From: a virus
Lineage: Duplodnaviria; Heunggongvirae; Uroviricota; Caudoviricetes
Reading direction: 5' to 3' (one strand)
Virus record (IMG/VR): IMGVR_UViG_2721755498_000001
DNA: 47,208 nt
In this document: piece after piece, positions 514 to 47,169 of the stretch
How positions within the stretch are numbered: the stretch's first letter is position 1
How the letters are laid out: the number at the start of each line of letters is the position of its first letter
The notes under the pieces: generated by a model
The model's input: the letters and a program-made list of their open reading frames with translations, nothing else
Database searches by the model: none
What the model was told of the DNA's origin: nothing
Made by a program: the position numbers and the translations under genes

Positions 514-1413
514 TTATGTCTGGATGTGGTCGTCAACACATCCTCTTTTAAATACAGGCGCTTTTACCTTAGTTGGATCATCTGTTTTAAAGATTTTCAA
601 TCGTTCACTGAAGAACATTACCTCAGATCCTTTGTACCGATCTTGAGCACTGTAGTTTATTCCATATACTAATGAGGATGTCTTATACATAGCTTGGATC
701 TCAGGAGTGTTATCGTAAGAAACAATCCAAGGCGTTTTAATATTATTCTGTACGACTTTTGCAACCCTAACATGATCATCATGATCATAATGGTTGATAT
801 ATAAGCCTTTACCTTTTATGTAATAAGGTGGATCCAAATAGGTTAATGAGTTTTGTGGCAATTGAATAACTATTTTTTTTATGAAATCAATTGCATCCAT
901 GTTATATAAATCTATTCTGTGACGATTTTCTGATATTCTATGGATTCGAGAAATCAAATCACTCTTATTATAGCGAGCGTCAAGCTTCCATTTCCCTTCT
1001 TGATTTTTACCGCCAATTACACCACCTTTTAATATTCCAGAACGATTTGTTCTATTGAGAAAAAAGGTTGAGAAACCAATTGTTAAAAGATCATGGTCTT
1101 TAGGATTATTAATTATATCTTTCTGCCTAAACCATTCATCCATTGTAACTTCTGTTCTTTCAACTAAAGAACATAATTGATCTGCATGATTTAATACACT
1201 GTGCCAAAAAGCATAAACAGAAATATTAATATCATTAAGGATGATTTTTTCAGCTGCATTTAGATGTAACAGTTTCAATGCTAAACCAGCACCCCCAGCA
1301 TATGGTTCGGCATAATGTATAGGCGAAAGATTATTTTCTTCAATAATCCGAAGCATGAAATTTGCAAGCTTGCCTTTACCGCCAGGATAGCGAAGTGGGG
1401 TGTTAAAACGCAT
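514..1413 (-). CDS. Dam-family (alpha-class, D12-like) DNA N6-adenine methyltransferase
   Basis: Motifs YPGGK, EPYAGGAG, LNRTNRSG and DPPYY align with E. coli Dam WAGGK / EPFVGAGS / LNRYGYNG / DPPY; RBS AGAGGT before the ATG; visibly AT-rich region. Confidence 0.85.
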   Translation of the reverse strand: MRFNTPLRYPGGKGKLANFMLRIIEENNLSPIHYAEPYAGGAGLALKLLHLNAAEKIILNDINISVYAFWHSVLNHADQLCSLVERTEVTMDEWFRQKDIINNPKDHDLLTIGFSTFFLNRTNRSGILKGGVIGGKNQEGKWKLDARYNKSDLISRIHRISENRHRIDLYNMDAIDFIKKIVIQLPQNSLTYLDPPYYIKGKGLYINHYDHDDHVRVAKVVQNNIKTPWIVSYDNTPEIQAMYKTSSLVYGINYSAQDRYKGSEVMFFSERLKIFKTDDPTKVKAPVFKRGCVDDHIQT

Positions 1414-1492
1414 ATGATACCTCTAAATGTCAGATCTAAAGTATATCAAAAAAAGGGCTTTATGGCCATCACATAAAACCCTTTTTAATCAA

Positions 1493-3226
1493 TTAGTTAT
1501 TTGACAGATATGATGAGATGGTAGCAGAATCGACACCATGTCCACTTATCATAATAACTTTAAGACTCTTTATTAGTTCATTCTTGAAGCTATCCGATTG
1601 CACAGGATTTTTCTCGACCCAATATCGATATGGGTTATCTTTAACTCGTCCTTTGACTTGGTCCTGAAATTGAGTCGTATGTGCAAAATCTTTAAACAGT
1701 TTTCTCACTCTCCCGCCATGATTTTTGTTAACTTTTTTATAATTATCTATAAGGATTTTTAAATCAATCGGAGCGTTACCAATCTTTAGCGTTGTAATTA
1801 TGTCTTTAGCTGTTTTCATAAAAACAGATTTTGTAAATTTATTTTTATTTTCCCAATATGCATCATCAGGTGGTAAATTATATAAAAACTCAAAAATCAT
1901 TTGATCTGGAGGTAAGGTGCTTGGAAGCAAACATAAGTTTTTTTCTTTTTTGGCTTTTTTTGCATTAGCACTGTTGTCGTGAACAACATCACCGTCTAAG
2001 ACGATCAAGCTTTTAGCTGTAAATTCTGGTATTTTTCTTGCCATTAAGTCAAGCATGGCAGAGCAGCTAATATTTATATTCCCTAATGGATTTAATATTT
2101 TATTTATTTTTCGATCTGTTATCAATTGTTTGAAAAAGTCGAAACCTTCTTTGTCTTCAAAATATACATTTGCTTTTGGAAGACAAATGTCATCATTAAT
2201 TTTTACAGTTTCAACATGTAAATCAGCGTGGATATCTGTCCATGAAAGATTATTCTTTGTTTTAATATCTCCATATGTGTCTGTAAGATATATTGTTTTA
2301 AAGCTATCACTATCTTGTTTTGAACGATTATAGATATCCTCTATTATTAATGGAGAGTGCGAGGTCATGATTATTTGCAGATCGTATTGTTTTGCTGCTT
2401 TAGTTAGAATATTAATTAACTCTAACTGTGCAGCAGGGAAAAGACCTGCATCGGCTTCATCAATTAACAATATTCCGCCATGATAATCAGAATAAGTTTC
2501 CTTCAATCTTTTAAATGAAAAAATTGCTTGGATTAATTGTCCAACATTATCTTCACCAACAGATACTGATTGGTGATCATAATTGTCACCATGGACAACC
2601 ATTGAATCGATAGTACCTTTTGTTGCTGTTACTGAGCTTCCATTGTTTTTTAGTAAGAGTTGGTTACTCATCATTCTGATTTCATCAGAATTTTCATTGA
2701 TGTACTGAACATCCCGTGTTGAGTAATTAGTCCTTAATGTAATAGGAAGAAGTCGTGCTAAGCTTAAAAAAATAACAGGATGAGTAACGTTTCTACTTTG
2801 GTTTTTTTCCGGTATTGAATCATTTCCCCTGACTACAGGCCTTGATTTATCTCTGTCACTGTAGCTGTATAAACCTAATGTTAGTTTTTCAAGATGTTTG
2901 TTCGATGCACCATCATAGACACTAATTTTGACGTCCATTGAACCAGGAACATCAAATTGTTCTGAAAGCCTAAAATGTTCGCTGAAAGCTGACTTGAAGC
3001 TGCCATTTGTTAATGTTTTATATTGTGTTAAATCAGTCTCAGGTTTTTTGGTAAAGTCCTTTGTAAAGCTAAATATTTGGGCGATAATGCCAAGAATTGT
3101 GGATTTAGATGTGCCATTTTTACCACAAATAACAGTTAGGCGAGAACCAAACTCGATGTTTATATTTTTCAGTCCGCGAAACTTCACAACATTTATATTT
3201 TTTAGTTTGGTAATTTGATTTGCCAT
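1493..3226 (-). CDS. ABC-type ATPase (OLD/GajA-like) with putative C-terminal TOPRIM nuclease domain
   Basis: Walker A GKNGTSKST, Walker B ILLIDEADAGL, H-loop TSHSP; C-terminal E...DxD pattern (YFEDKEG ... IVLDGD) typical of TOPRIM. Start taken at the internal ATG (MANQITK) with upstream GGAG; the ORF is open to 3277. AT-rich; co-oriented with int. Confidence 0.7.
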   Translation of the reverse strand: MANQITKLKNINVVKFRGLKNINIEFGSRLTVICGKNGTSKSTILGIIAQIFSFTKDFTKKPETDLTQYKTLTNGSFKSAFSEHFRLSEQFDVPGSMDVKISVYDGASNKHLEKLTLGLYSYSDRDKSRPVVRGNDSIPEKNQSRNVTHPVIFLSLARLLPITLRTNYSTRDVQYINENSDEIRMMSNQLLLKNNGSSVTATKGTIDSMVVHGDNYDHQSVSVGEDNVGQLIQAIFSFKRLKETYSDYHGGILLIDEADAGLFPAAQLELINILTKAAKQYDLQIIMTSHSPLIIEDIYNRSKQDSDSFKTIYLTDTYGDIKTKNNLSWTDIHADLHVETVKINDDICLPKANVYFEDKEGFDFFKQLITDRKINKILNPLGNINISCSAMLDLMARKIPEFTAKSLIVLDGDVVHDNSANAKKAKKEKNLCLLPSTLPPDQMIFEFLYNLPPDDAYWENKNKFTKSVFMKTAKDIITTLKIGNAPIDLKILIDNYKKVNKNHGGRVRKLFKDFAHTTQFQDQVKGRVKDNPYRYWVEKNPVQSDSFKNELIKSLKVIMISGHGVDSATISSYLSNN

Positions 3227-3250
3227 GTTTGTATCTTGCTCCGTAAAATG

Positions 3251-3267
3251 GCCACAAATTGTGGCCA
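3251..3267. promoter_or_regulatory. Perfect 17-bp palindrome between int stop and ATPase start (terminator or operator candidate)
   Basis: ggccacaaattgtggcc at 3251-3267; followed by ATTTTA on the minus strand. Confidence 0.3.
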
Positions 3268-3284
3268 ATAGTTTCATGCTTGGA

Positions 3285-4451
3285 TTATATTGTTATCTTC
3301 TTCAAGCTTGTTTGTCCATCATATTCCTTCAGATATGAGCCATAGTGCCTGAAAAGCATCTCCGGTCCTTTATGCCCCATTTGAGCTGCAAGCCAAAACA
3401 GGTTTGCTCCCCGGCTGATATGGCGGGTGGCGAATGTATGCCTAGTTTGATATGGATTTCTGTAACGAATACCTGCTTTTCGCAATGTTGGCACCCATGC
3501 TTTTTTTCTGATTGCATCAGCACTTGCCCATGGCTTATTGGTCTTTGGATCTTCAAAGACAGTAGCATCCTTCATGAATGTAAATGGCTTCTGGTTTATC
3601 AACGCCAACATTGCTTCTTCAGTCAGTTCAACTTTACGGGTACCGGCTTTTGTCTTTGTTCCTTTGATAACTCCGACAACACTTGCGCTCTGAACATGGG
3701 CTGTTTTTCCAACAAAGTCGATATCATGCCATCGTAGGGCACATAATTCAGAACTACGCAGGCCTGTATGTATGGCGAACCGGAACAGATTTTCCCATTG
3801 TTTGTTTCCGGCTGCTGCTAGTAATGCATCAACTTCTGCTGGTGATAGCGGATCAACCACATAGCTGCTTTCTGCTTCTGACTTATCACTTTGGTAGCGC
3901 GAAGCTGTTACTAACGATACGGGGTTAATTTGAAGTACCCCATCGGTCACGGCTTCATCAAGTGCTGACCGTAGGAAAGATAACTGGTTGCGAATGGTTT
4001 TTAAGGTTGTTTTCTGGCTTTGAATCCACGCTTTCAGGGTTGCTGGTGTTAATTCACTTGCAGGGCAAATGTGAAGTGAGGCTAACGCACTACGGCATTT
4101 TTTATAGCCACCAATCGTAGAGGGTGAAAGTTTTCTTGTTTCGCAGATTTCAAGATATTCGTCCAGGTACATCTTTACCGTTTTGCCTGCAGCAGCATTA
4201 CCAAAAATTTTCAAACGAGCAGAACGGGGAAAATATTCTGCATAAATGAATGTTCCCCTTTCGATCTTATTATGGATTTCGCCGAGTGTACGCTCGGCGT
4301 ATTTAATGTTCTTTGGTGTTACTTCCAGATTGGAAAGCGGCTCACGACATCTAACTCCTTTGTAGGTGAAAGTTATATTGATCGTTTCTCCCTGGCGGTG
4401 TTTCCTGATTGTTACGCCGCGCGGTAGTTTGAGCAGTTTTGTCTGGCCCAT
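3285..4451 (-). CDS. int: Phage integrase, tyrosine recombinase
   Basis: 388 aa; C-terminal catalytic region with R...H..R...Y context (HTFATRHISRGANLFWLAAQMGHKGPEMLFRHYGSY); next to xis and the att end. Confidence 0.9.
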   Translation of the reverse strand: MGQTKLLKLPRGVTIRKHRQGETINITFTYKGVRCREPLSNLEVTPKNIKYAERTLGEIHNKIERGTFIYAEYFPRSARLKIFGNAAAGKTVKMYLDEYLEICETRKLSPSTIGGYKKCRSALASLHICPASELTPATLKAWIQSQKTTLKTIRNQLSFLRSALDEAVTDGVLQINPVSLVTASRYQSDKSEAESSYVVDPLSPAEVDALLAAAGNKQWENLFRFAIHTGLRSSELCALRWHDIDFVGKTAHVQSASVVGVIKGTKTKAGTRKVELTEEAMLALINQKPFTFMKDATVFEDPKTNKPWASADAIRKKAWVPTLRKAGIRYRNPYQTRHTFATRHISRGANLFWLAAQMGHKGPEMLFRHYGSYLKEYDGQTSLKKITI

Positions 4452-4657
4452 TTTGCAACCTCACTAAGATCAATCCACCTCTCCTTAACGCCTTCAACCT
4501 TTAAAACCTGAACACCTTCACGCCAAACACCGCGCTGTACACGTTTGTTTATTGCTTCAGGAGTTTCGCCAGTTTCTTTGCAATAAGTTGAGATAGGAAC
4601 ACAATCGAGGTTCAGCATACGTTTCTCCATTATCCCGTCTGCACACGGGAGCAACAT
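4412..4657 (-). CDS. xis: Excisionase-like DNA-binding protein (start may be an internal ATG)
   Basis: Small ORF overlapping the int start by about 40 nt; winged-helix-like KERWIDLSEVAKWAR segment; classic xis-int overlap arrangement. Confidence 0.55.
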   Translation of the reverse strand: MLLPCADGIMEKRMLNLDCVPISTYCKETGETPEAINKRVQRGVWREGVQVLKVEGVKERWIDLSEVAKWARQNCSNYRAA

Positions 4658-4659
4658 TA

Positions 4660-5550
4660 TTAACGAATAGTGTCGTTACTTTGAAGTACAGCAAATGCCA
4701 TTAATACTTCTAAAGTATATCTTCTATAAAATTTAACAAAACCAACATAGAAAACATAGACGAAGAAAAAGCTAAGCATTATTGAAAGTAAACTATAAAG
4801 ATAATCACTATGAGTACATAATCGATAAATAAAGGTTGGAACTGATACCCAAAATGAAATTATAAAGATTAAACATATGTTTCTGCAAAAACCATATAAT
4901 GCAACATAGTTTTGAATTTTTGTTTGATGTTGTTTTGAAAACTCATAAACATAATGATATGCCAATCTGAAGAGATCATCATCAAGTCCGTTTTTATCTT
5001 GTAATAATTGGCGATTTGTTATGAACTTTTTCTCATAACCTTCTTTGATCATTAACCATGTTGTATTAGCTAAATGAAATGGTAGAGATTGAGAATAACA
5101 TAGTTTTTGTGTTATAAAATCCCATAGTATTATTGGACATAATACGCATTTGATTATGCGATTCTTTATTTTTGTTTTTTTATCAGCGCTTCTCTCATCG
5201 CATGATGGGCTACAAATGCTTTCTGAGGTATCTATCAATTTTTTAAATAGATATTTGGAAGGATATCCTAATTCTTTATTCATGTATTTTTCGATAAAAA
5301 ATGCTGACGTGATAGAAATAAAATGTCCAGCTATATAAGATATAATAACTATTGAAGCGTAGTTCAAAATGCCAAAGATTTGACTTTGACCTCTGAGCAA
5401 TTCACTTAAGTCAATAACAATATCTAGATCGAATGTCAAACCACAGAAATACATTAATAGGATAAAAAAACCACCTGGTATTAAATATCCAAGAAAGTCA
5501 TAGAATGAGAATGGATTTTGATTCATTGTTGCTCTCCAATAATTTTTCAA
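4660..5550 (-). CDS. Multi-pass membrane protein of unknown function (AT-rich moron)
   Basis: 296 aa with hydrophobic helices at both ends and a soluble middle; strongly AT-rich DNA unlike the flanking phage genes. Confidence 0.55.
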   Translation of the reverse strand: MKNYWRATMNQNPFSFYDFLGYLIPGGFFILLMYFCGLTFDLDIVIDLSELLRGQSQIFGILNYASIVIISYIAGHFISITSAFFIEKYMNKELGYPSKYLFKKLIDTSESICSPSCDERSADKKTKIKNRIIKCVLCPIILWDFITQKLCYSQSLPFHLANTTWLMIKEGYEKKFITNRQLLQDKNGLDDDLFRLAYHYVYEFSKQHQTKIQNYVALYGFCRNICLIFIISFWVSVPTFIYRLCTHSDYLYSLLSIMLSFFFVYVFYVGFVKFYRRYTLEVLMAFAVLQSNDTIR

Positions 5551-16360: not shown

Positions 16361-17413
16361 ATGAAAAATACTGTAAAAATAAACAGTGTTGATTTAATCA
16401 ACGCTGATTGCCTGCATTTTATTCAGTCCCTGCCTGATGATTCCATTGACCTGATTGTTACCGATCCGCCGTACTTCAAGGTGAAACCCAACGGCTGGGA
16501 CAATCAGTGGAAAGGGGACGAAGATTACCTTAAGTGGCTGGACCACTGTCTGGCCCAGTTCTGGCGGGTGTTAAAACCTGCCGGAAGCCTTTACCTGTTC
16601 TGTGGGCATCGCCTGGCATCTGATATTGAGATCATGATGCGTGAACGTTTCAACGTGCTTAACCATATCATCTGGGCGAAGCCGTCCGGACGTTGGAATG
16701 GGTGTAATAAAGAAAGTCTGCGCGCATATTTTCCTGCCACAGAGCGCGTTCTGTTTGCTGAACATTACCAGGGGCCATATCGCGGCAAAAGTGACGGCTA
16801 TGCGGCAAAAGAAAGGGAACTCAAACAGCACATAATGGCACCGCTGATATCGTATTTCAGGGATGCTCGTGCCGAACTGGGTATAACGGCAAAACAAATT
16901 GCCGAAGCCACAGGTAAGAAAAATATGGTTTCCCACTGGTTTGGTGCCAGTCAGTGGCAGTTGCCGAATGAGGCTGACTATCGGAAGTTACAGGCACTGT
17001 TTTCCCGTATAGCGGCAGAGAAGTTTCAGGAACAACAACTGGAACAACCACACCACCAGCTGGTGGCATCTTATGATTCACTGAATCGCAAATATTCTGA
17101 ATTGCTGGATGAGTTTAAATCTCTCCGGCGCTATTTCTCCGTATCAGTCTCCGTGCCTTATACCGATGTCTGGATGCATAAACCCGTTCAGTTCTACCCG
17201 GGTAAACATCCGTGTGAGAAACCGGCGGATATGCTCAGGCAAATAATCAATGCCAGTAGTCGACCTGGTGATCTGGTTGCTGATTTTTTTATGGGATCCG
17301 GTTCCACAATAAAAGCAGCAATGGCGCTGGGGCGTCGGGCCTTAGGTGTTGAGCTTGAGTCAGAGCGGTTTAACCAGACAGTGAAAGAGATAAACGAGCT
17401 GGTGGGGAAATAA
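16361..17413 (+). CDS. Orphan beta-class DNA methyltransferase (N6-adenine or N4-cytosine)
   Basis: Motif [11 protein letters not shown] near the N-terminus and motif I FFMGSGST near the C-terminus (beta-class order); no adjacent nuclease gene. Confidence 0.8.
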
Positions 17414-17480
17414 TCTGGTGGCCACGTCAGGTGGCCTTTTTATTTCCATTACACAGCACCCGCATCTGCGAGGTGGGGTT

Positions 17481-17696
17481 ATGAAATCCATGGATAAGTT
17501 AACAACGGGTGTCGCCTATGGCACCTCAGCAGGTAGTGCCGGGTACTGGTTTTTACAGTTGCTCGATAAAGTCACGCCCTCACAGTGGGCGGCAATAGGT
17601 GTGCTGGGTAGTCTGGTATTTGGCCTGCTGACGTACCTGACAAACCTTTATTTCAAGATTAAAGAAGATAAGCGCAAGGCTGCGAGAGGTGGATAA
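17481..17696 (+). CDS. S: Pinholin, phage 21 S21-like
   Basis: Dual-start MKSMDK motif; [13 protein letters not shown]...[13 protein letters not shown] transmembrane segments; 71 aa. Confidence 0.8.
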
Positions 17697-18193
17697 TGCC
17701 TCCATCATTACGAAAAGCTGTTGCTGCTGCTATTGGTGGCGGAGCAATTGCTATAGCATCAGTGTTAATCACTGGCCCAAGTGGTGACGATGGCCTGGAA
17801 GGTGTCAGCTACATACCATACAAAGATATCGTTGGCGTATGGACTGTATGTCACGGACACACCGGAAAAGACATCATGCTCGGTAAAACGTATACCGAAG
17901 CAGAATGCAAAGCCCTCCTGAATAAAGACCTTGCCACGGTTGCCAGACAAATTAACCCGTACATCAAAGTCGATATACCGGAAACAACGCGCGGCGCTCT
18001 TTACTCGTTCGTCTACAACGTGGGTGCTGGCAATTTCAGAACATCGACGCTTCTTCGCAAAATAAACCAGGGCGATATCAAAGGCGCATGTGACCAGCTA
18101 CGTCGCTGGATATACGCTGGCGGTAAGCAATGGAAAGGCCTGATGACTCGTCGTGAGATTGAGCGTGAAGTCTGTTTGTGGGGGCAGCAATGA
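17696..18193 (+). CDS. R: SAR endolysin (lysozyme with N-terminal signal-anchor-release domain), R21-like
   Basis: Gly/Ala-rich N-terminal SAR segment ([18 protein letters not shown]) followed by a lysozyme-like region; directly after the holin. Confidence 0.8.
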
Positions 18194-18633
18194 GCAGAGT
18201 AACCGCGATTATCTCCGCTCTGATTATCTGCATCATCGTCTGCCTGTTATGGGCTGTTAATCATTACCGTGATAACGCCATCGCCTACAAAGAGCAGCGC
18301 GACAAAGCCGCATCCACTATCGCTGATATGCAGAAGCGTCAACGTGATGTAGCAGAACTCGACGCCAGATACACAAAGGAGCTTGCTGATGCTAACGCGA
18401 CTATCGAAAGTCTTCGTGCTGATGTTTCTGCTGGGCGTAAGTGGCTGCGCGTCAAAGCTGTCTGTCCAGACATGCATAAAATCACCGCCGCCTCCGGCGT
18501 GGATGATGGCACCAGCCCCAGACTTACTGACACCGCTCAACGGGATTATTTCACCCTTAGAAAGCGGATTGAAACCAGTGATAAAATGATCCGAGGCTTG
18601 CAGCAATACATTCGCACGCAGTGTGTAAGATGA
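18190..18633 (+). CDS. Rz: Rz-like inner-membrane spanin
   Basis: N-terminal transmembrane segment, coiled-coil-like remainder; overlaps the endolysin end. Confidence 0.7.
18383..18589 (+). CDS. Rz1: Rz1-like outer-membrane lipoprotein spanin, embedded in Rz in the +1 frame
   Basis: Signal peptide with lipobox VSGC ([12 protein letters not shown]) and a proline-rich segment; fully nested in Rz. Confidence 0.6.
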
Positions 18634-19013
18634 GCAATCTTTGCTAATTAGCCATGAAATAGATAAATATCAGGCCAACGATGATTAGTGCCAGGCATCC
18701 TAATTGGTCAGAATGGCTGGCATTTGATCGTCTTGCTCTTCTTGCAGTTGATTGGACAGCCCTCTGTCCTCGACTTCCTCTTGGCATTCCTCTCATTTAT
18801 TCTCTCTCAACATTGATATTGAACTGACAGATGATAATTATTTCATGAAAGTGGTATCTCGTTGATTTGATTACGCTACATAGTCGCCGGATTTTCGCAT
18901 TTATCGGCATCGGGCGGTGCAAAATTGGCATAATCGAAACGTAGAGTTTTTGGCTGACAACAGCATTAGCGGTCACCCGGAGAGTGTTGTGAACATGTTA
19001 ATTACATGACGCT

Positions 19014-19334
19014 TTAGATGCATCGACATTTGATGATGCTTGTCAGACCTGTCATTTTCTTTGCTTCATTTTCAACATTGATGAAGTTGGTTGAGCATAT
19101 TTTTTGATAATCTCCAGTTGTGAATCCTGTTTTATCGATCTTGCGTTTCAAGGGATTAATCGTTTTGCAAGATGCTCTATGGATTCTGGTAAAGCGTTCG
19201 TCAGATTTATTACCTTTACCTCTGGTTCGCTTCAATGCATTGACAACATATCCGTCTGGATTATCGCCAAGCCAATTACGATAGTCTGATTCACTCTCAG
19301 TCTGAAGGTCACTTCTGAATACCTTTATGGACAT
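19014..19334 (-). CDS. Small basic hypothetical protein (antisense moron between lysis and packaging genes)
   Basis: RBS AGGAG 7 nt before the internal ATG (MSIKVFRSDL); AT-rich; opposite strand to the late operon. Confidence 0.4.
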   Translation of the reverse strand: MSIKVFRSDLQTESESDYRNWLGDNPDGYVVNALKRTRGKGNKSDERFTRIHRASCKTINPLKRKIDKTGFTTGDYQKICSTNFINVENEAKKMTGLTSIIKCRCI

Positions 19335-19480
19335 GAAGATACTCCTGTGCATTTATGGTACGAAGAAATAGCAAAAGTATTTTTACCGTAAATTGCGAAT
19401 CTACAAAAGCAAAACAATGCGTAATATCAGAGTGAATATTCTGCCTTTAATGTGGGTCCTTCTGATGACCTGAGCTCTCA

Positions 19481-19560
19481 CGGGGCGGGAGCGTCGCGGA
19501 AAAAGGCTAGTTTTTGAAATTTCATTCGTCATCACCACTATTGTAATATATTGATATTAC
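19481..19560. other. Candidate cos site (cohesive end and terminase binding region)
   Basis: cggggcgggagcgtcgcgg resembles lambda cosN GGGCGGCGACCTCGCGG (recalled); about 110-190 bp upstream of the small terminase gene. Confidence 0.4.
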
Positions 19561-19668: not shown

Positions 19669-20163
19669 ATGGATCGAGAGTTAAAAAATCTGACGCTGAA
19701 TATCAGTCAACTGGCGGCACTGTCAGGTGTACATCGCCAGACTGCTGCGGCAAGGCTGCAAAATCTACCCGTTGCAGGGGGGCATGAAAGCAACCTCAAG
19801 CTTTATCGGGTGGTTGATATTGTGTCGGCATTTCTGGCATTACCACCGCCGGTTGCAGAAGGCGAAATGGACGCGCATGAGCGCAAAGCCTGGTATCAGT
19901 CTGAACGTGAGCGTCTTAAGTTCGAACAGGAAACGGCACAACTCATTCCGGCCAGTGATGTCAGACGGGAGTTTGCCATCTGGGCAAAAGCGGTCGTGCA
20001 GGTGCTGGAGACATTACCGGATATTCTTGAACGTGACTGCGGTCTGCAGCCTGCCGCTGTGAGCCGTGTTCAGTCCATTATTGATGATCTGCGCGATCAG
20101 ATAGCCCTGCGGGTGACTGAAGCAGGTGCGGATGATGAGGAGGAATTACAGCAGGAGGAGTAA
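19669..20163 (+). CDS. Terminase small subunit (Nu1-like)
   Basis: 164 aa directly upstream of the large terminase; N-terminal HTH-like region; acidic C-terminus. Confidence 0.7.
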   Translation: MDRELKNLTLNISQLAALSGVHRQTAAARLQNLPVAGGHESNLKLYRVVDIVSAFLALPPPVAEGEMDAHERKAWYQSERERLKFEQETAQLIPASDVRREFAIWAKAVVQVLETLPDILERDCGLQPAAVSRVQSIIDDLRDQIALRVTEAGADDEEELQQEE

Positions 20164-22265
20164 TGCTGAATCAGGAAACCGCAAAGGCAGCACGAACCGA
20201 TTCAGGTTATATCCTTCGCGCACCGAGACGAATGCGGGTTGCTGATGCCGTTGCTCAGTATATGCGGGTGCCCATGGGGGCAGGGAACTCAGTCCCGTGG
20301 GATCCGCTGGTGGCACCGTATGTTATTGAGCCGATGAACTGCCTGGCCTCGCGTGAATACGACGCAGTGATATTTGTTGGCCCGGCACGAACCGGCAAGA
20401 CTATCGGCCTGATTGACGGCTGGGTGATTTACAACGTGATTTGCGATCCTGCTGATATGCTGATTATTCAGATGACGGAGGAAAAAGCCCGCGAACACTC
20501 CAAAAAACGACTCGCCAGAACGTTTCGCGTCAGCCCGGAAGTGGTCAGTCGCCTGAGTCCGAACAAAAATGACAACAACGTTTATGACAGAACATTCCTT
20601 GCTGGTAACTACCTGAAAATCGGCTGGCCGTCAGTCAATATCATGTCCTCATCAGATTATAAATGCGTCGCGCTGACGGATTATGACCGTTTTCCGGAAG
20701 ATATTGATGGCGAGGGGGATGCTTTCTCTCTTGCCTCAAAACGTACCACAACATTTATGTCCAGTGGTATGACGCTGGTGGAGAGTTCCCCCGGCAGGGA
20801 TGTGAAGGATGTGAAATGGCGACGGACTTCACCGCATGAGGCTCCACCAACCACGGGGATACTGTCGCTCTATAACCGTGGCGATCGCCGTCGCTGGTAC
20901 TGGCCCTGTCCACACTGTGGTGAGTATTTTCAGCCCTGCGGCGATGTGGTTGCTGGTTTCCGTGATATTGCCGATCCCGTGCTGGCAAGTGAGGCGGCTT
21001 ATATTCAGTGTCCTTCCTGTTCAGGACGGATTATGCCTGAACAAAAACGTGAGCTGAACGGACGTGGGGTCTGGTTGCGGGATGGTGAATCCATCAATGC
21101 GGATGGCAGTCGTTATGGTGATCCCCGACGCTCACGTATTGCGTCATTCTGGATGGAGGGTCCGGCAGCTGCTTACCAGACACTCTCGCAACTCGTTTAC
21201 AAACTGCTTACTGCAGAACAGGAATACGAGACAACCGGAAGTGAAGAGACACTCAAGACGGTTATCAATACCGACTGGGGATTACCTTATCTTCCCCGCG
21301 CCAGCATGGAGCAACGAAAAAGTGAACTGCTTGAGCAGCGGGCAGAGCCAGTTCCTTCCCGCAGTGTGCCGGATGGCGTTAATTTTCTTGTGGCGACAGT
21401 GGATGTGCAGGCGGGACGTCATCGCCGTTTTGTGGTTCAGGTAACGGGCTATGGCAGCCGTGGCGAACGCTGGATTATTGATCGTTACAACATCACGCAG
21501 TCATTGCGCGGTGACAGCGACGGGGAGAGCCAGCGAATTGATCCGGCCAGCTATCCGGAAGACTGGGATGTCCTGCTGACGGATGTTTTTCATAAAAGCT
21601 GGCCGCTGGCCTCCGATCCTTCTCAACAAATGCGACTGATGGCAATGGCGGTGGACTCCGGCGGTGAAGACGGGGTCACTGATAATGCCTATAAATTCTG
21701 GCGTCGTTGCCGTCGTGATGGCCTTGGTAAACGTATTTACCTGTTTAAGGGCGACAGCATCCGGCGCGCAAAACTGATCACCCGTACATTCCCTGATAAC
21801 ACCGGACGAACGGGCCGACGGGCGCAGGCTGCAGGTGATGTGCCGCTCTGGCTTCTTCAGACGGATGCACTGAAAGACCGGGTGAATAACGCGTTATGGC
21901 GTGACTCGCCAGGTCCCGGCTATGTGCATTTCCCTGACTGGCTGGGGAGCTGGTTTTACGACGAACTGACGTATGAAGAGCGGAGCAGTGACGGGAAATG
22001 GAGTAAGCCGGGTCGCGGTGCCAACGAAGCTTTTGACCTGATGGTGTATGCCGAGGCTCTGGTCATTCTGCATGGATACGAAAAGATCCGCTGGCCGGAT
22101 GCACCGGAGTGGGCGAGCCGGGAAACCTGGCTGGAGTGTGTCCCGGACAGTACCGAACCGTCACCCTCACCGGAACCGGTATCCACGCCTGTTAAAAAAC
22201 AAAAACGGAAGAAAACAGTAACTGACGATGTTAACCCCTGGCTGACTTCCGGAGGATGGTTATGA
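20163..22265 (+). CDS. Terminase large subunit (gpA-like)
   Basis: 700 aa; ATPase motif VIFVGPARTGKT; position between small terminase and portal. Confidence 0.85.
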   Translation: MLNQETAKAARTDSGYILRAPRRMRVADAVAQYMRVPMGAGNSVPWDPLVAPYVIEPMNCLASREYDAVIFVGPARTGKTIGLIDGWVIYNVICDPADMLIIQMTEEKAREHSKKRLARTFRVSPEVVSRLSPNKNDNNVYDRTFLAGNYLKIGWPSVNIMSSSDYKCVALTDYDRFPEDIDGEGDAFSLASKRTTTFMSSGMTLVESSPGRDVKDVKWRRTSPHEAPPTTGILSLYNRGDRRRWYWPCPHCGEYFQPCGDVVAGFRDIADPVLASEAAYIQCPSCSGRIMPEQKRELNGRGVWLRDGESINADGSRYGDPRRSRIASFWMEGPAAAYQTLSQLVYKLLTAEQEYETTGSEETLKTVINTDWGLPYLPRASMEQRKSELLEQRAEPVPSRSVPDGVNFLVATVDVQAGRHRRFVVQVTGYGSRGERWIIDRYNITQSLRGDSDGESQRIDPASYPEDWDVLLTDVFHKSWPLASDPSQQMRLMAMAVDSGGEDGVTDNAYKFWRRCRRDGLGKRIYLFKGDSIRRAKLITRTFPDNTGRTGRRAQAAGDVPLWLLQTDALKDRVNNALWRDSPGPGYVHFPDWLGSWFYDELTYEERSSDGKWSKPGRGANEAFDLMVYAEALVILHGYEKIRWPDAPEWASRETWLECVPDSTEPSPSPEPVSTPVKKQKRKKTVTDDVNPWLTSGGWL

Positions 22266-42715: not shown

Positions 42716-43534
<819 letters not shown>

Positions 43535-43895
43535 TCATTGCAAGGGCTCACAACCAGTAGTGTTGAGAAAACCATCGGAGAAATGAGGCTAAGCCTTTGA
43601 ATTTACATAGTACAAAAAAGATACTTTTCCTCATAATGTGAGCTAATTTTATGTTTCGTTTGATGATTGGACCGGTCTCGAAAACCGTAGACACATAGTA
43701 TGCGTTAATTTATGAACAAACTACTTGTCTGCTGTTTTTCTGTCATTAGTCGTATATAGAATGATTCTCTATGCCTAACAAAGCATCACCAGTGCTAGAT
43801 TACGTTGTAGTCACTGTTTAAATATCCAGATAAAACATTTCCTTCTGGGTTGAATGAGTGATAAAGTTTCACCCATTAGACCCCTTGGAGGAATT

Positions 43896-45329
43896 ATGTC
43901 TGAATTTGAAGTGTTGGCACAGCATCTGCTGAAGGAAGCCGAGGCGGAAGAAAAGCTGCGACAGGAAAATGATAAAAAGCTTATCGAGAAAGTGCTGGAA
44001 ATCTATGATCAGAAGTATGTGGCTGAATTACTGAGAAAAGTCGGAAAAAATGAGTGGAGCCGTGAAACCATTAACCGCTGGATTAATGGCAAGTGTTTAC
44101 CAAAATCGTTGACTTCAGTAGAAGAGTCTCTTCTGCGTAAGATGCTACCAGAACCACCTGCAAACCATCCGGAATATGCTTTCCGCTTCATTGACTTATT
44201 TGCTGGAATTGGAGGGATACGGAAAGGTTTTGAGGCCATTGGAGGCCAGTGTGTTTTTACCAGTGAATGGAATAAAGATGCTGTGCGTACATACAAGGCC
44301 AACTGGTTTAACGATGAACAGGTGCATAAATTCAATCTCGATATTCGGGAAGTCACGCTGAGTGATAAAACCGATGTATTGGAAACGGATGCTTATGCAT
44401 ATATTGATGAGCATGTGCCGGATCATGATGTGCTTCTTGCGGGGTTCCCGTGCCAGCCATTTAGCCTTGCTGGTGTTAGTAAGAAAAACTCACTTGGTCG
44501 TGCGCATGGTTTTGAATGTGAAGCACAAGGAACACTTTTTTTTGACGTGGCACGTATTATACGAGCAAAAAAACCGGCAATTTTTGTGCTGGAAAATGTC
44601 AAAAATCTGAAGAGCCATGATAAGGGTAAAACTTTCAAAGTCATTATGGAGACCCTTGACGAGCTGGGCTACGAAGTTGCCGATGCTGCAGAAATGGGAA
44701 AAAACGATCCAAAGATTATCGATGGGAAGCATTTTTTGCCTCAGCATCGTGAACGCATTGTTCTGGTCGGATTTAGACGAGATCTGAATATTCACAAGGG
44801 GTTTACCTTGCGTGATATCAGTCGTTTTTATCCGGAACACCGCCCATCATTTGGTGAATTGCTGGAGCCTGTAGTCGACAGTAAATATATACTTACGCCA
44901 AAACTATGGGAGTACCTTTATAACTACGCCAAAAAGCATGCAGCCAAGGGGAATGGTTTTGGCTTTGGGTTGGTCAATCCTGAGAATAAGGAAAGCATTG
45001 CACGCACACTTTCTGCCAGATATCACAAAGACGGATCAGAAATTCTTATTGATCGTGGTTGGGATATGGCAACGGGAGAGGCTGACTTTATGAATGAGAG
45101 TAATCAGGCTCGTCGACCACGCAGGCTGACTCCCCGAGAGTGCGCACGCCTTATGGGATTTGAAAAACCTGGAGGGAAACCATTCCGTATTCCGGTTTCA
45201 GATACTCAGTCATATCGGCAGTTCGGTAACTCAGTTGTGGTGCCAGTATTTGAAGCTGTTGCCAGACTTCTGGAACCCTATATCCTCAAAGCTGTTTCTG
45301 CTGATGCTGGTAAGACTGGGCAGCCTTGA
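43896..45329 (+). CDS. DNA cytosine-5 methyltransferase, Dcm / M.EcoRII-like
   Basis: Motif [16 protein letters not shown], motif [10 protein letters not shown], motif VI ENVKNL; N-terminal region close to E. coli Dcm; 477 aa from the RBS-supported ATG, the length recalled for M.EcoRII. Confidence 0.9.
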
Positions 45330-45363: not shown

Positions 45364-46578
45364 CTATGATAGTTCAGCGTAAAGCTCTATCAGCTCAGTA
45401 ATGAATGCTCCGAGCGTTATTAATTCTTCTCTAACTGCTTCTGGGTATTTTTTATGTAAAGTTGATGGTACAACGAGTCTGACACCCGCATCTTTCATTT
45501 CTCGGTATTGTGCTGAAGAAACACCTTCTTGCAGTGTAAATAAATGTACCTGATGGATTTTATCTGCTTCATTCAGTATCTGACGCCAGCGATCTTTGCA
45601 GGTGGTCTTTACTGCCAGCATACGTAAGTTTTCTACAGGAAATTCAACGTTATGATATGCCTCTGCTGAAGGAAACAGGAAATCTGGTTTTTTATTACCT
45701 TCAGTAACTGCCTGAGTGGAGAAATGCCGTAGTCCGTGCTCGATAAAAAGCTTCTCTAGGTGAAGTTCAAGTGATTTGCCTGCCCTTGATTTACGTCGAT
45801 TACTGACAGAGTTGGCTAATGCAATAAACTCATCTACAGAATCGAATCCTTTCTTAATAATATCAAGAACATGTAATTCCTCGACGAGTAGAAAAATATC
45901 ATACTCGACACGCCGACGGTCAATCAGTTGCTCATCTGGATCCTTGGAGTTTTTAGCATAATGGCCAGCAGCATATTGAATAATTTCGTTTCCAGAAGGA
46001 AAACGCTTCTTCCAGTCTTCAGGAATAACATATTTATGATTTACTGGAGTTTGCTGAAGAGACAATCCGCCCAAAATTTGTCCGGCAGGGCCGGAAATTA
46101 GGGTTCCAGGTATGATTTCGCCAATAGCAGACTCGATGATATCCTCTTCATCGGGATTGACGCAGACCCATATATCTACCTCGGAACAGTCAGTGTTCTG
46201 TTCGTTTAACCTGAAAGCAAGAATTGTGAGGGCTCCTGTATTTTCAGGGTTCTGTAATGGACTTCCTCTCCCCCAGCGCGTAATTCTTTTTTCGTTTCGG
46301 GTCTTACCAAAATAACGGTTGTTGTAATAAATTGCGCGTGCTTGGGTATCAGGGCAATCATGGGATGATACATGCGCAGTAAGGAAGACTGAAGGGTTCA
46401 GTTCGCGAGTATGATTGATAGATGGAAAAAGCTTTTCAACGATATTTGAGGGGATATAAAGTCCGACCTGATGGCCACCTGTTGCGCCTGTGTCGTTTGC
46501 AGAAAGGCGTTTGATGTAGATAAAGTAATTCCCGCTTGCGATATCAAGCAGCCAGTTATGAAAAACCGACATATACAT
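45364..46578 (-). CDS. Type IIE restriction endonuclease, EcoRII-like
   Basis: 404 aa, the length recalled for R.EcoRII; convergent with a Dcm-like methyltransferase; identity from memory, not search-confirmed. Confidence 0.65.
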   Translation of the reverse strand: MYMSVFHNWLLDIASGNYFIYIKRLSANDTGATGGHQVGLYIPSNIVEKLFPSINHTRELNPSVFLTAHVSSHDCPDTQARAIYYNNRYFGKTRNEKRITRWGRGSPLQNPENTGALTILAFRLNEQNTDCSEVDIWVCVNPDEEDIIESAIGEIIPGTLISGPAGQILGGLSLQQTPVNHKYVIPEDWKKRFPSGNEIIQYAAGHYAKNSKDPDEQLIDRRRVEYDIFLLVEELHVLDIIKKGFDSVDEFIALANSVSNRRKSRAGKSLELHLEKLFIEHGLRHFSTQAVTEGNKKPDFLFPSAEAYHNVEFPVENLRMLAVKTTCKDRWRQILNEADKIHQVHLFTLQEGVSSAQYREMKDAGVRLVVPSTLHKKYPEAVREELITLGAFITELIELYAELS

Positions 46579-46806: not shown

Positions 46807-46839
46807 TGGTGGAGCTGGCGGGAGTTGAACCCGCGTCCG
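46807..46839. repeat. attR core: ssrA 3' end, duplicated at 409-441
   Basis: Matches 409-441 with one mismatch. Confidence 0.85.
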
Positions 46840-47169
46840 AAATTCCTACATCCTCGGTACTACATGCTTAGTCAGTCTTTACATTCGCTTGCCAGCTGCG
46901 GACGGACACGCCACTAACAAACTAGCCTGATTAAGTTTTAACGCTTCAACCCCAGGCAGGACTTCCACGCGATCTCTTTTGGGTTTGACCTCTCTTGATC
47001 CCCGTCCTAAGAGCGGAGGCTAGGGAGAGAGGGCTCTAAGCAGGTTATTAAGCTGCTAAAGCGTAGTTTTCGTCGTTTGCGACTATTTTTTGCGGCTTTT
47101 TACGAGGCCAACCGCCCCTCGGCATGCACCTTGGGTTTCGCAAATCCCGTCGAATCCAGAATCAGCCCC
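46807..47169 (-). ncRNA. ssrA: tmRNA (SsrA), 363 nt
   Basis: Reverse complement runs from GGGGCTGATTCTGGATTCGACGGG to the tRNA-like 3' end CCAGCTCCACCA; tag-encoding region recognisable. Confidence 0.95.

Follow-up and report, generated by a model that had tools for sequence, protein, structure and literature searches.

This paper deals with a small antisense gene of a lambdoid prophage, contained in a stretch of 47,208 nucleotides (nt) from a virus of the Caudoviricetes (IMG/VR record IMGVR_UViG_2721755498_000001), which as a whole is called below the window. The gene occupies positions 19014..19334 of the minus strand (stop codon included), between the lysis cassette and the cohesive-end site (cos), and encodes a basic protein of 106 amino acids (aa) for which all annotations read “hypothetical”. 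The gene is real, is under purifying selection, and is best explained as a single-gene “moron” (the term is taken from PMC2629481), i.e., a cargo dispensable for lysis and packaging. Profile comparisons indicate that its product is the stand-alone form of a widespread unnamed domain of ~95 aa, which in many of its multidomain relatives is combined with an HNH nuclease. The analysis covered the conservation, the genomic arrangement, and the domain architectures of this family.

The coordinates of the gene follow from the list of open reading frames (ORFs), from the sequence itself, and from the RefSeq coding sequence (CDS). The product of the 106-codon ORF is MSIKVFRSDLQTESESDYRNWLGDNPDGYVVNALKRTRGKGNKSDERFTRIHRASCKTINPLKRKIDKTGFTTGDYQKICSTNFINVENEAKKMTGLTSIIKCRCI (MSIKVFRS...KCRCI), and WP_032213815.1 represents the RefSeq annotation of an identical 321-nt CDS as a “hypothetical protein”. 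A Shine-Dalgarno sequence AGGAG is read on the same strand at 19342..19346, 7 nt 5' of the ATG at 19334, and its GGAG is kept at equal spacing in nearly all homologous loci. An alternative in-frame ATG at 19352, which would give a protein of 112 aa with six residues more, was rejected because no homologue outside E. coli has this extension, and all of them begin at the equivalent of MSIKV and are ~106 aa long. The protein contains 12 Lys and 9 Arg residues (isoelectric point, pI, 9.66) and Cys at positions 56, 80, 103, and 105; its basic stretch comprises residues 31-68, and the net charge across residues 31-75 is +9. The GC content is 38.3% in the ORF and 39.8% in the entire gap between Rz and terS, against 50% in the lysis genes and 54% in the late genes. 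An earlier note on this DNA had described here an antisense gene for a small Lys/Arg-rich protein with C-terminal Cys residues and a good ribosome-binding site, located in an AT-rich gap between the lysis cassette and cos, and this description is confirmed by the ORF, the AGGAG element, the flanking genes, and the composition of the protein and of the gap.

A word-indexed search of 5.8 billion proteins retrieved 24 clusters of homologues with 58-98% identity, nearly all of 105-110 aa, whose hosts belong to Escherichia/Shigella, Klebsiella, Citrobacter, Leclercia, Raoultella, Pseudescherichia, and Cedecea. The alignment of the ~106-aa homologues has 35 invariant columns. The ratio of nonsynonymous to synonymous substitutions (dN/dS, Nei-Gojobori), calculated for the window gene versus five homologous loci and also among those loci, is 0.08-0.28, with synonymous sites near saturation. 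Of 5426 complete E. coli genomes, 53 carry the gene, and it also occurs in 66 IMG/VR viral contigs. These data clearly indicate conservation of the ORF in relatives, the lack of which had been named by the earlier note as an argument against its own claim, and the conservation together with the dN/dS values rules out a spurious ORF.

To describe the arrangement of the gene, ~80 loci were oriented on it and their neighbours were classified. In these loci, the gene is a single-gene cassette invariably opposing the late operon, and in nearly all of them the first packaging gene is divergent from it, although this packaging gene belongs to at least five module types. The most frequent partner is a Terminase_2-type terS (31 loci, 45-61 nt separating the start codons), followed by the lambda Nu1/A module located across cos (12 loci, with 238-317 nt to an antisense ORF script-called over Nu1 and ~340 nt to Nu1 itself in the loci where this was checked) and by the DUF1441 terS found in the window (7 loci, 334-nt gap including cos). 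Other terS partners starting with MAKPDW/MATPDW occur in 5 loci, and a phage-metallopeptidase protein with the related N-terminus MAKLDW in one. A 287-aa partner with a C-terminal HNH domain is divergent from the gene in 8 loci, and a 142-aa HNH protein and a ParB_N protein in one locus each. Since the gene recurs at this junction in six enterobacterial genera and beside packaging modules of at least five types, it is clearly selected; since many terS partners share their first residues, its tight linkage to them may partly reflect inheritance of mosaic blocks and not independent selection.

Downstream of the gene, the neighbours split into 34 unrelated clusters (including Rz, DUF2513, Tad2-like, trypsin-like, and a PDC-S47-like candidate defence protein), so a conserved operon partner was rejected. 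The Tad2-like gene (PF11195) is located on the late strand in the same hot spot between the lysis genes and terS in several Raoultella/Klebsiella-type prophages (loci L018-L021, 5475-6044), and the PDC-S47-like candidate defence gene lies in the same junction in locus L070 (5405-6208). Their presence suggests that the junction is a general slot for conflict genes.

Within E. coli, the cargo gap travels as one block (at least 95% identity in the 53 genomes mentioned above). Phages vB_EcoS-569R4, phi458, and mEp460 share the methylase-lysis-cos-terS backbone of the window and lack the 106-aa gene: they match the window only from cos onward and possess other small ORFs between Rz and cos. The presence or absence of the gene at the same junction among close relatives, together with its deviant base composition, bears out the suggestion of the earlier note that it is a moron, and as a genomic object it is an ordinary moron in a known hot spot.

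The protein itself is much less ordinary with respect to databases. It has no match in Pfam up to E = 10, none in NCBIfam (HNH included), and none among the PADLOC-DB v2 families at E ≤ 10; in PHROGs only insignificant matches were obtained (E 0.22-0.24), and nothing meaningful was found in PDB either by sequence or by profile. A HMMER profile search of 1.84 billion cluster representatives revealed 244 proteins at E ≤ 1e-3, and these representatives (50% identity) span Planctomycetes, Chloroflexi, Actinobacteria, and Proteobacteria. In a second word-indexed search with a broader profile, 341 clusters were obtained; among the 120 listed, none has a Pfam annotation and almost all are called “hypothetical”. 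The absence of a recognisable family, asserted by the earlier note, thus holds for Pfam, NCBIfam, PADLOC, and PHROGs, and it does not hold for profile searches, which reveal a widespread unnamed His/Cys domain family, often fused to HNH. The family, which is large and sharply delimited, has no curated model, no literature that we could find, and no solved structural relative.

The domain follows the pattern F..(D/E)..Y..WL..NP.GFV.N ... LHRA.C..I ... FT...Y.K.C ... (helix) ... C..C.P. Among 85 stand-alone members, W21, G28, H52, and K78 are invariant, while F6, Y18, V30, N32, C56, T72, Y76, C80, C103, and C105 are conserved in at least 90%. The 55 multidomain members show no variation in the equivalent W, G, H, and K, in the first Cys, and in both C-terminal Cys, and the C80 equivalent is conserved in at least 90% of them. 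The candidate metal ligands are H52, C56, C80, C103, and C105, which correspond to the family signature HxxxC...C...CxxC, and from this conservation we infer that the invariant His and the conserved Cys residues hold a structural zinc ion. The enterobacterial phage clade is distinguished by a CxC in place of the C-terminal CxxC and by a basic insertion of ~7 residues (KxTxGxGNKSDERF).

The structure prediction proposed by the earlier note resulted in a confident model: AlphaFold with the 85-sequence alignment gave a predicted local distance difference test (pLDDT) of 91.7 and a predicted template modelling score (pTM) of 0.84, with the predicted order beta-alpha-beta-alpha-beta-beta-alpha-beta. 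Foldseek comparisons of two models (pLDDT 85 and 92) with PDB gave at best E 1.1-3.9 and a query-normalised TM-score of ≤0.41, and in BFVD, searched with the first model, nothing was found below E = 1. Since the fold has no recognisable solved relative, the known modified-DNA readers having structures (NEco, SRA, EVE/PUA, winged helix, and SBD) can be excluded. The nearest curated model is DUF6233, which comprises small HxxxC...CxxC zinc modules with the same putative ligand order, namely HxxxC, ~40 residues with a strand and a helix, and CxxC(xP). The LHKATC segment of one relative (P0031) matches DUF6233 below the threshold (E 0.0016, 19 bits vs. the cut-off of 27.6), whereas the phage protein itself does not match it, and the model is devoid of the N-terminal beta-alpha-beta (YxxWLxxNPxGFVxN) and of the FTxxxYxK strand typical of our family. 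A literature search on DUF6233 returned nothing.

The strongest hint at the function of the domain comes from its fusions. Among 173 family members, ~111 are stand-alone; in longer proteins, the domain is N-terminal in 34 cases and C-terminal in 17, and two members possess tandem copies. A Pfam search of the 55 multidomain members revealed HNH in 16, HNH_2 in 9, HNH_5 in 2, and NOV_C (PD-(D/E)xK-type) in 2 of them, as well as a protein kinase, a YgjP-like peptidase, and a helix-turn-helix (HTH) domain in one each; a fusion to an AAA/McrB-like ATPase is also present among the relatives. At least 25 of the 55 carry a C-terminal HNH nuclease of McrA type or phosphorothioate (PT) type. In PADLOC, the HNH parts match “type IV methyl-directed restriction enzyme” models at profile positions ~176-260 of 277 only, which is the catalytic end of McrA, and the type IV profile aligns only with the C-terminal 80 residues of the fused homologues. 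In NCBIfam, the HNH_2 parts resemble PT-dependent restriction endonucleases, the fused kinase resembles MADS6/PglW-like defence kinases (PD-T4-6/MADS6-like), and one fusion resembles MqsA-type antitoxins.

In characterised enzymes (PMC7145662, PMC7461809, and PMC11037411), an N-terminal domain reads a DNA modification and HNH cuts (NEco-HNH in EcoKMcrA, SBD/SRA-HNH as in ScoMcrA, and winged-helix-HNH). Because the HNH parts of our relatives match only the McrA catalytic end or the PT-dependent enzymes, the unnamed domain can be placed into the “reader” slot. Arguing from this architecture, one can suggest that the domain is a targeting or sensor module, its ligand being most likely a nucleic acid. 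Two relatives possess repeated domains: in P0031 (340 aa, metagenomic), three copies in tandem come after a transmembrane helix at the N-terminus, and P0042 has two copies followed by an HNH domain. Such tandem readers would fit the recognition of repeated or symmetric targets.

The upstream regions suggest that the gene may be transcribed on its own. In most of the homologous loci, including nearly all contexts outside E. coli, a canonical extended -10 element (TGTTATAAT or TGTTATATA) precedes the ATG by 30-38 nt, with GGAG coming after it; in the relatives, it reads CCTGTTATAATTC, with the variants TTGTTATATAT, CGATATAAT, and GATAAAAAT. In the Terminase_2 contexts, this element is only ~10 nt away from the terS start codon, which belongs to the other strand. 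In the window, the alignment of upstream regions points to a weak candidate sigma-70 promoter region at 19379..19410 (minus strand), where the motif TTTTGTAGATTC (19397-19408, ~65 nt upstream of the ATG) aligns with the extended -10 of the relatives and contains a -10-like TAGATT (19398-19403) with TG before it. As judged from these sequences, independent transcription is well supported for the family and plausible for the window copy. Late transcription that starts 5' of the lysis genes would collide with the gene head-on, and from this orientation we suppose that the gene is expressed in the lysogen.

We tentatively prefer the explanation, in which our confidence does not reach an even chance, that the gene is a self-transcribed moron, probably expressed in the lysogen, whose product is a targeting or reader domain devoid of a nuclease and acting by occupancy. 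The phage protein is soluble, single-domain, and devoid of catalytic motifs, with no HNH match in Pfam, PADLOC, or NCBIfam. Its invariant His and conserved Cys would hold the structural zinc, while the basic loop specific to the clade and the conserved residues W, Y, N, T, Y, and K may form a surface for binding nucleic acid, possibly modified DNA. Driven by its own constitutive extended -10 promoter and transcribed head-on to the late operon, the protein would be made mainly while late transcription is silent, i.e., in the lysogen and immediately after the DNA has entered the cell. It would then bind its DNA target and mask or block it, with no cutting; action by occupancy is suggested because the protein has no catalytic domain. 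As a result, incoming DNA could be excluded or handicapped, or the prophage's own DNA could be shielded. A function in the lysogen (exclusion or protection) is favoured since the gene opposes the lytic programme and candidate defence genes share its hot spot.

Several observations weigh against this preferred explanation. The window version of the -10 element is degenerate (TGTAGATT or, alternatively, TTGTAG, 16 nt, and AAAAAT, both weak), a consensus promoter scan gave no promoter on the ORF strand near the ORF, and no intrinsic terminator was found in the scanned region; folding of the 166 nt spanning the stop codon and the downstream sequence also revealed no GC-rich hairpin followed by a U-run. 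Not all members of the family are basic, their pI varying from 5.1 to 9.8. The fusions to the kinase, the peptidase, and the ATPase imply that the ligand could be a protein or a small molecule, not DNA. Six distant stand-alone homologues occur in heterogeneous contexts with no consistent association (these include a prophage methylase, an HTH gene with a YoeB toxin-antitoxin pair, an AAA_15/NurA island, and housekeeping genes). Finally, a binding-only protein at the expression levels of a lysogen is a weak way to block DNA, and our literature searches gave no precedent for such a stand-alone reader.

The same data may be read differently if the free domain imitates the targeting or sensor part of those host nucleases or kinases which contain this domain themselves, so that it takes up their ligand or target in competition with them, or ties them up in dead-end complexes, and in this way protects the phage. 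For such an anti-defence decoy speak the homology to the N-terminal domain of defence-type effectors (McrA-like HNH, PD-T4-6/MADS6-like kinase, and McrB-like ATPase), the sigma-70-type promoter possessed by the relatives, and the Tad2-like gene in the same hot spot. Moreover, the gene adjoins cos in the packaging modules DUF1441 and lambda Nu1/A, both of cos type. In cos-type genomes, ~145 nt separate it from the right cohesive end and its putative promoter is directed inward, so it would be among the first DNA entering the cell and could be expressed at once. The right end of lambda DNA enters the cell first, and anti-restriction genes at leading ends exist in T7 (Ocr) and in the leading regions of plasmids. 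However, no fused homologue was found in Enterobacteriaceae, and only stand-alone proteins are present among the closest relatives of the phage clade, which leaves it unclear what the decoy could be aimed at in the host. The gene is directed against lytic transcription, in contrast to the Tad2-like gene, which follows the late strand, and its place in pac-type phages does not coincide with a fixed end of the genome. We consider the decoy doubtful.

The close position of the packaging genes allows one to think of a local regulator, i.e., a zinc-dependent DNA binder acting near cos/pac or near the terS start, or a divergent transcription hindering terminase read-through, which would silence the packaging genes in the lysogen or protect the prophage cos against the terminases of related phages. 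Indeed, most of the ~80 loci show the gene and the first packaging gene back to back at a short distance (45-61 nt for Terminase_2 terS, ~93 nt for the HNH gene, and ~335 nt including cos for cos-type phages), and its -10 element approaches the terS start codon in the Terminase_2 contexts. A shared operator is unlikely with at least five unrelated families of terS/HNH partners, though, and the MAKPDW N-terminus common to many terS partners suggests inheritance partly in mosaic blocks. Close relatives package normally without the gene, and the gap contains no repeated operator-like sequence (only short repeats of chance level). We regard such a regulator as very unlikely. Even less probable is a trans-acting specificity subunit, in which the free domain docks on a separate nuclease (a phage HNH endonuclease, a terminase, or a host HNH enzyme) and supplies its targeting as one half of a split domain-HNH pair. 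The HNH domain of the divergent 287-aa protein in 8 viral loci appears, by eye, to belong to the subtype CxxC...HH...CxNCHxxLH, which P0070, P0133, and P0154 contain in fusion with our domain, and one more locus has the 142-aa HNH neighbour; yet these are only 9 of the ~80 loci, the window has no HNH gene nearby, and HNH genes beside terminases are common in phages for unrelated reasons. The 287-aa partners (L041, L049, L051, L075-L078, and L081; ~4043-4908, minus strand) have an N-terminal part of ~190 residues with no assignment, and they may represent a prophage-borne type IV-like nuclease or a split arrangement. A Bor-like envelope or virulence factor, or a spurious ORF, has in our opinion a negligible probability. 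The position and strand are those of lambda bor and the region is AT-rich, but the protein has no signal peptide, lipobox, or hydrophobic segment, its N-terminus (MSIKVFRSDLQTESE) is polar with no Cys before residue 56, there is no Pfam match, and the predicted fold is a compact soluble alpha/beta domain. A Bor-like lipoprotein is thus excluded by the sequence features and by the conservation.

If the preferred explanation of a reader acting by occupancy is extended further, the gene could represent a new class of nuclease-free “reader-only” conflict factors. The unnamed zinc domain would then be a new recognition module for DNA or modified DNA, which bacteria have weaponised through fusion to HNH and other effectors and which temperate enterobacterial phages deploy “naked”, from a gene with its own promoter next to the packaging site, in order to hide DNA from such enzymes or to obstruct DNA that enters the cell. 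In this case, the gene of cos phages would sit on the first DNA entering the cell. We regard this generalisation as distinctly unlikely at present.

In the window, the lysis cassette on the plus strand consists of the holin (17418-17696), the endolysin (17696-18193), and the Rz spanin (18178..18633) with the embedded Rz1 (18383-18589); the end of Rz forms the left boundary of the AT-rich cargo gap (18634..19477, ~40% GC), which extends from the Rz stop to the cos end. The right boundary is the approximate cohesive-end site with the G-rich sequence GGGGCGGGAGCGTCGCGG (19478..19500), ~145 nt upstream of the ORF start. Its coordinates were deduced from the start points of database phage records, so the nick sites are approximate: position 1 corresponds to window position 19483 in the records of phages cdtI and Tritos and to 19478 in mEp460_4F5, and cos was placed here because several phage genomes begin at ~19478-19483. 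The first packaging gene, divergent from the ORF, is terS for the small terminase subunit (19669..20163, plus strand; DUF1441, Pfam E 2.7e-41), followed by terL (20163-22265, according to the annotation). The cargo gap contains also a second small ORF, unannotated (18644-18796, minus strand), which follows the 106-aa gene on this strand after 217 nt and encodes 50 aa with an Arg-rich N-terminus (MRGMPRGSRGQRAVQSTARRARR), a hydrophobic C-terminal helix, and no Pfam match. Its homologues with 53-57% identity are placed elsewhere in two viral contigs (L082, 1747-1878, and L055, 4578-4667), and since they sit at other positions, this ORF may be an independent gene for a small membrane protein.

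Directly upstream of the holin, the late operon carries an N6_N4 DNA methyltransferase of 350 aa (16361-17413, plus strand). A link to the phage methyltransferase was rejected as a rule, as the N6_N4 methylase is absent from the 5-kb flanks of most other loci. A distant stand-alone homologue from Paraburkholderia diverges from an N6_N4 methylase in an integrase-bearing element (L092, 3906-5312), and a methylation link may exist for the 106-aa protein, though the pairing is not general. At the right end of the window, there are an EcoRII restriction-modification system (C5 cytosine methylase, 43854-45329, plus strand; EcoRII endonuclease, 45364-46578, minus strand), a LEM-3-like GIY-YIG protein (42716-43489, minus strand), and the transfer-messenger RNA (tmRNA) gene ssrA (46807-47169, minus strand). 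The left end (514-4451) is AT-rich (~31-35% GC) and carries, all on the minus strand, a D12-class N6-adenine methylase (514-1413), a 594-aa AAA_15/AAA_21 ATPase (1493-3277), and a tyrosine integrase (3285-4451); the D12-class methylase and the ATPase may be a defence-type cargo pair at the prophage border.

Its repeated fusion to McrA-type HNH makes the unnamed domain a candidate for a new module of specificity or sensing in restriction-like defence. Once its ligand is defined, the toolbox of modification-dependent enzymes would gain one more reader domain, hundreds of hypothetical proteins could be annotated, and it would become clear what use a free reader domain has for a prophage.

Genes for lysogenic conversion and conflict are known to occupy the lysis-packaging junction of lambdoid phages. 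Lambda bor is a moron of this junction expressed in the lysogen. The window gene shares with bor-type morons the slot between Rz and cos/terS, the strand opposite to the late operon, the AT-rich composition, the presence or absence among near-identical phages, and, probably, its own transcription. It differs from bor in sequence and class, being a basic His/Cys domain of cytoplasmic type and not a lipoprotein, and no terminator was found for it. With T7 Ocr and the genes of plasmid leading regions it has in common a probable promoter of its own and, in cos-type genomes, the location near the end expected to enter first, whereas there is no homology to them and no fixed end exists in its pac-type relatives. 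A further parallel is represented by the readers of HNH modification-dependent endonucleases (NEco of EcoKMcrA, SRA/SBD of ScoMcrA, the winged helix of HhiV4I, and EVE). The phage protein has no sequence or fold similarity to the solved reader domains, contains no nuclease domain, and is only a putative binder of modified DNA, but its homologues fill the same slot upstream of McrA- or PT-type HNH, in agreement with the modular “reader-plus-HNH” logic outlined in PMC7145662, PMC7461809, PMC11037411, and PMC7641849.

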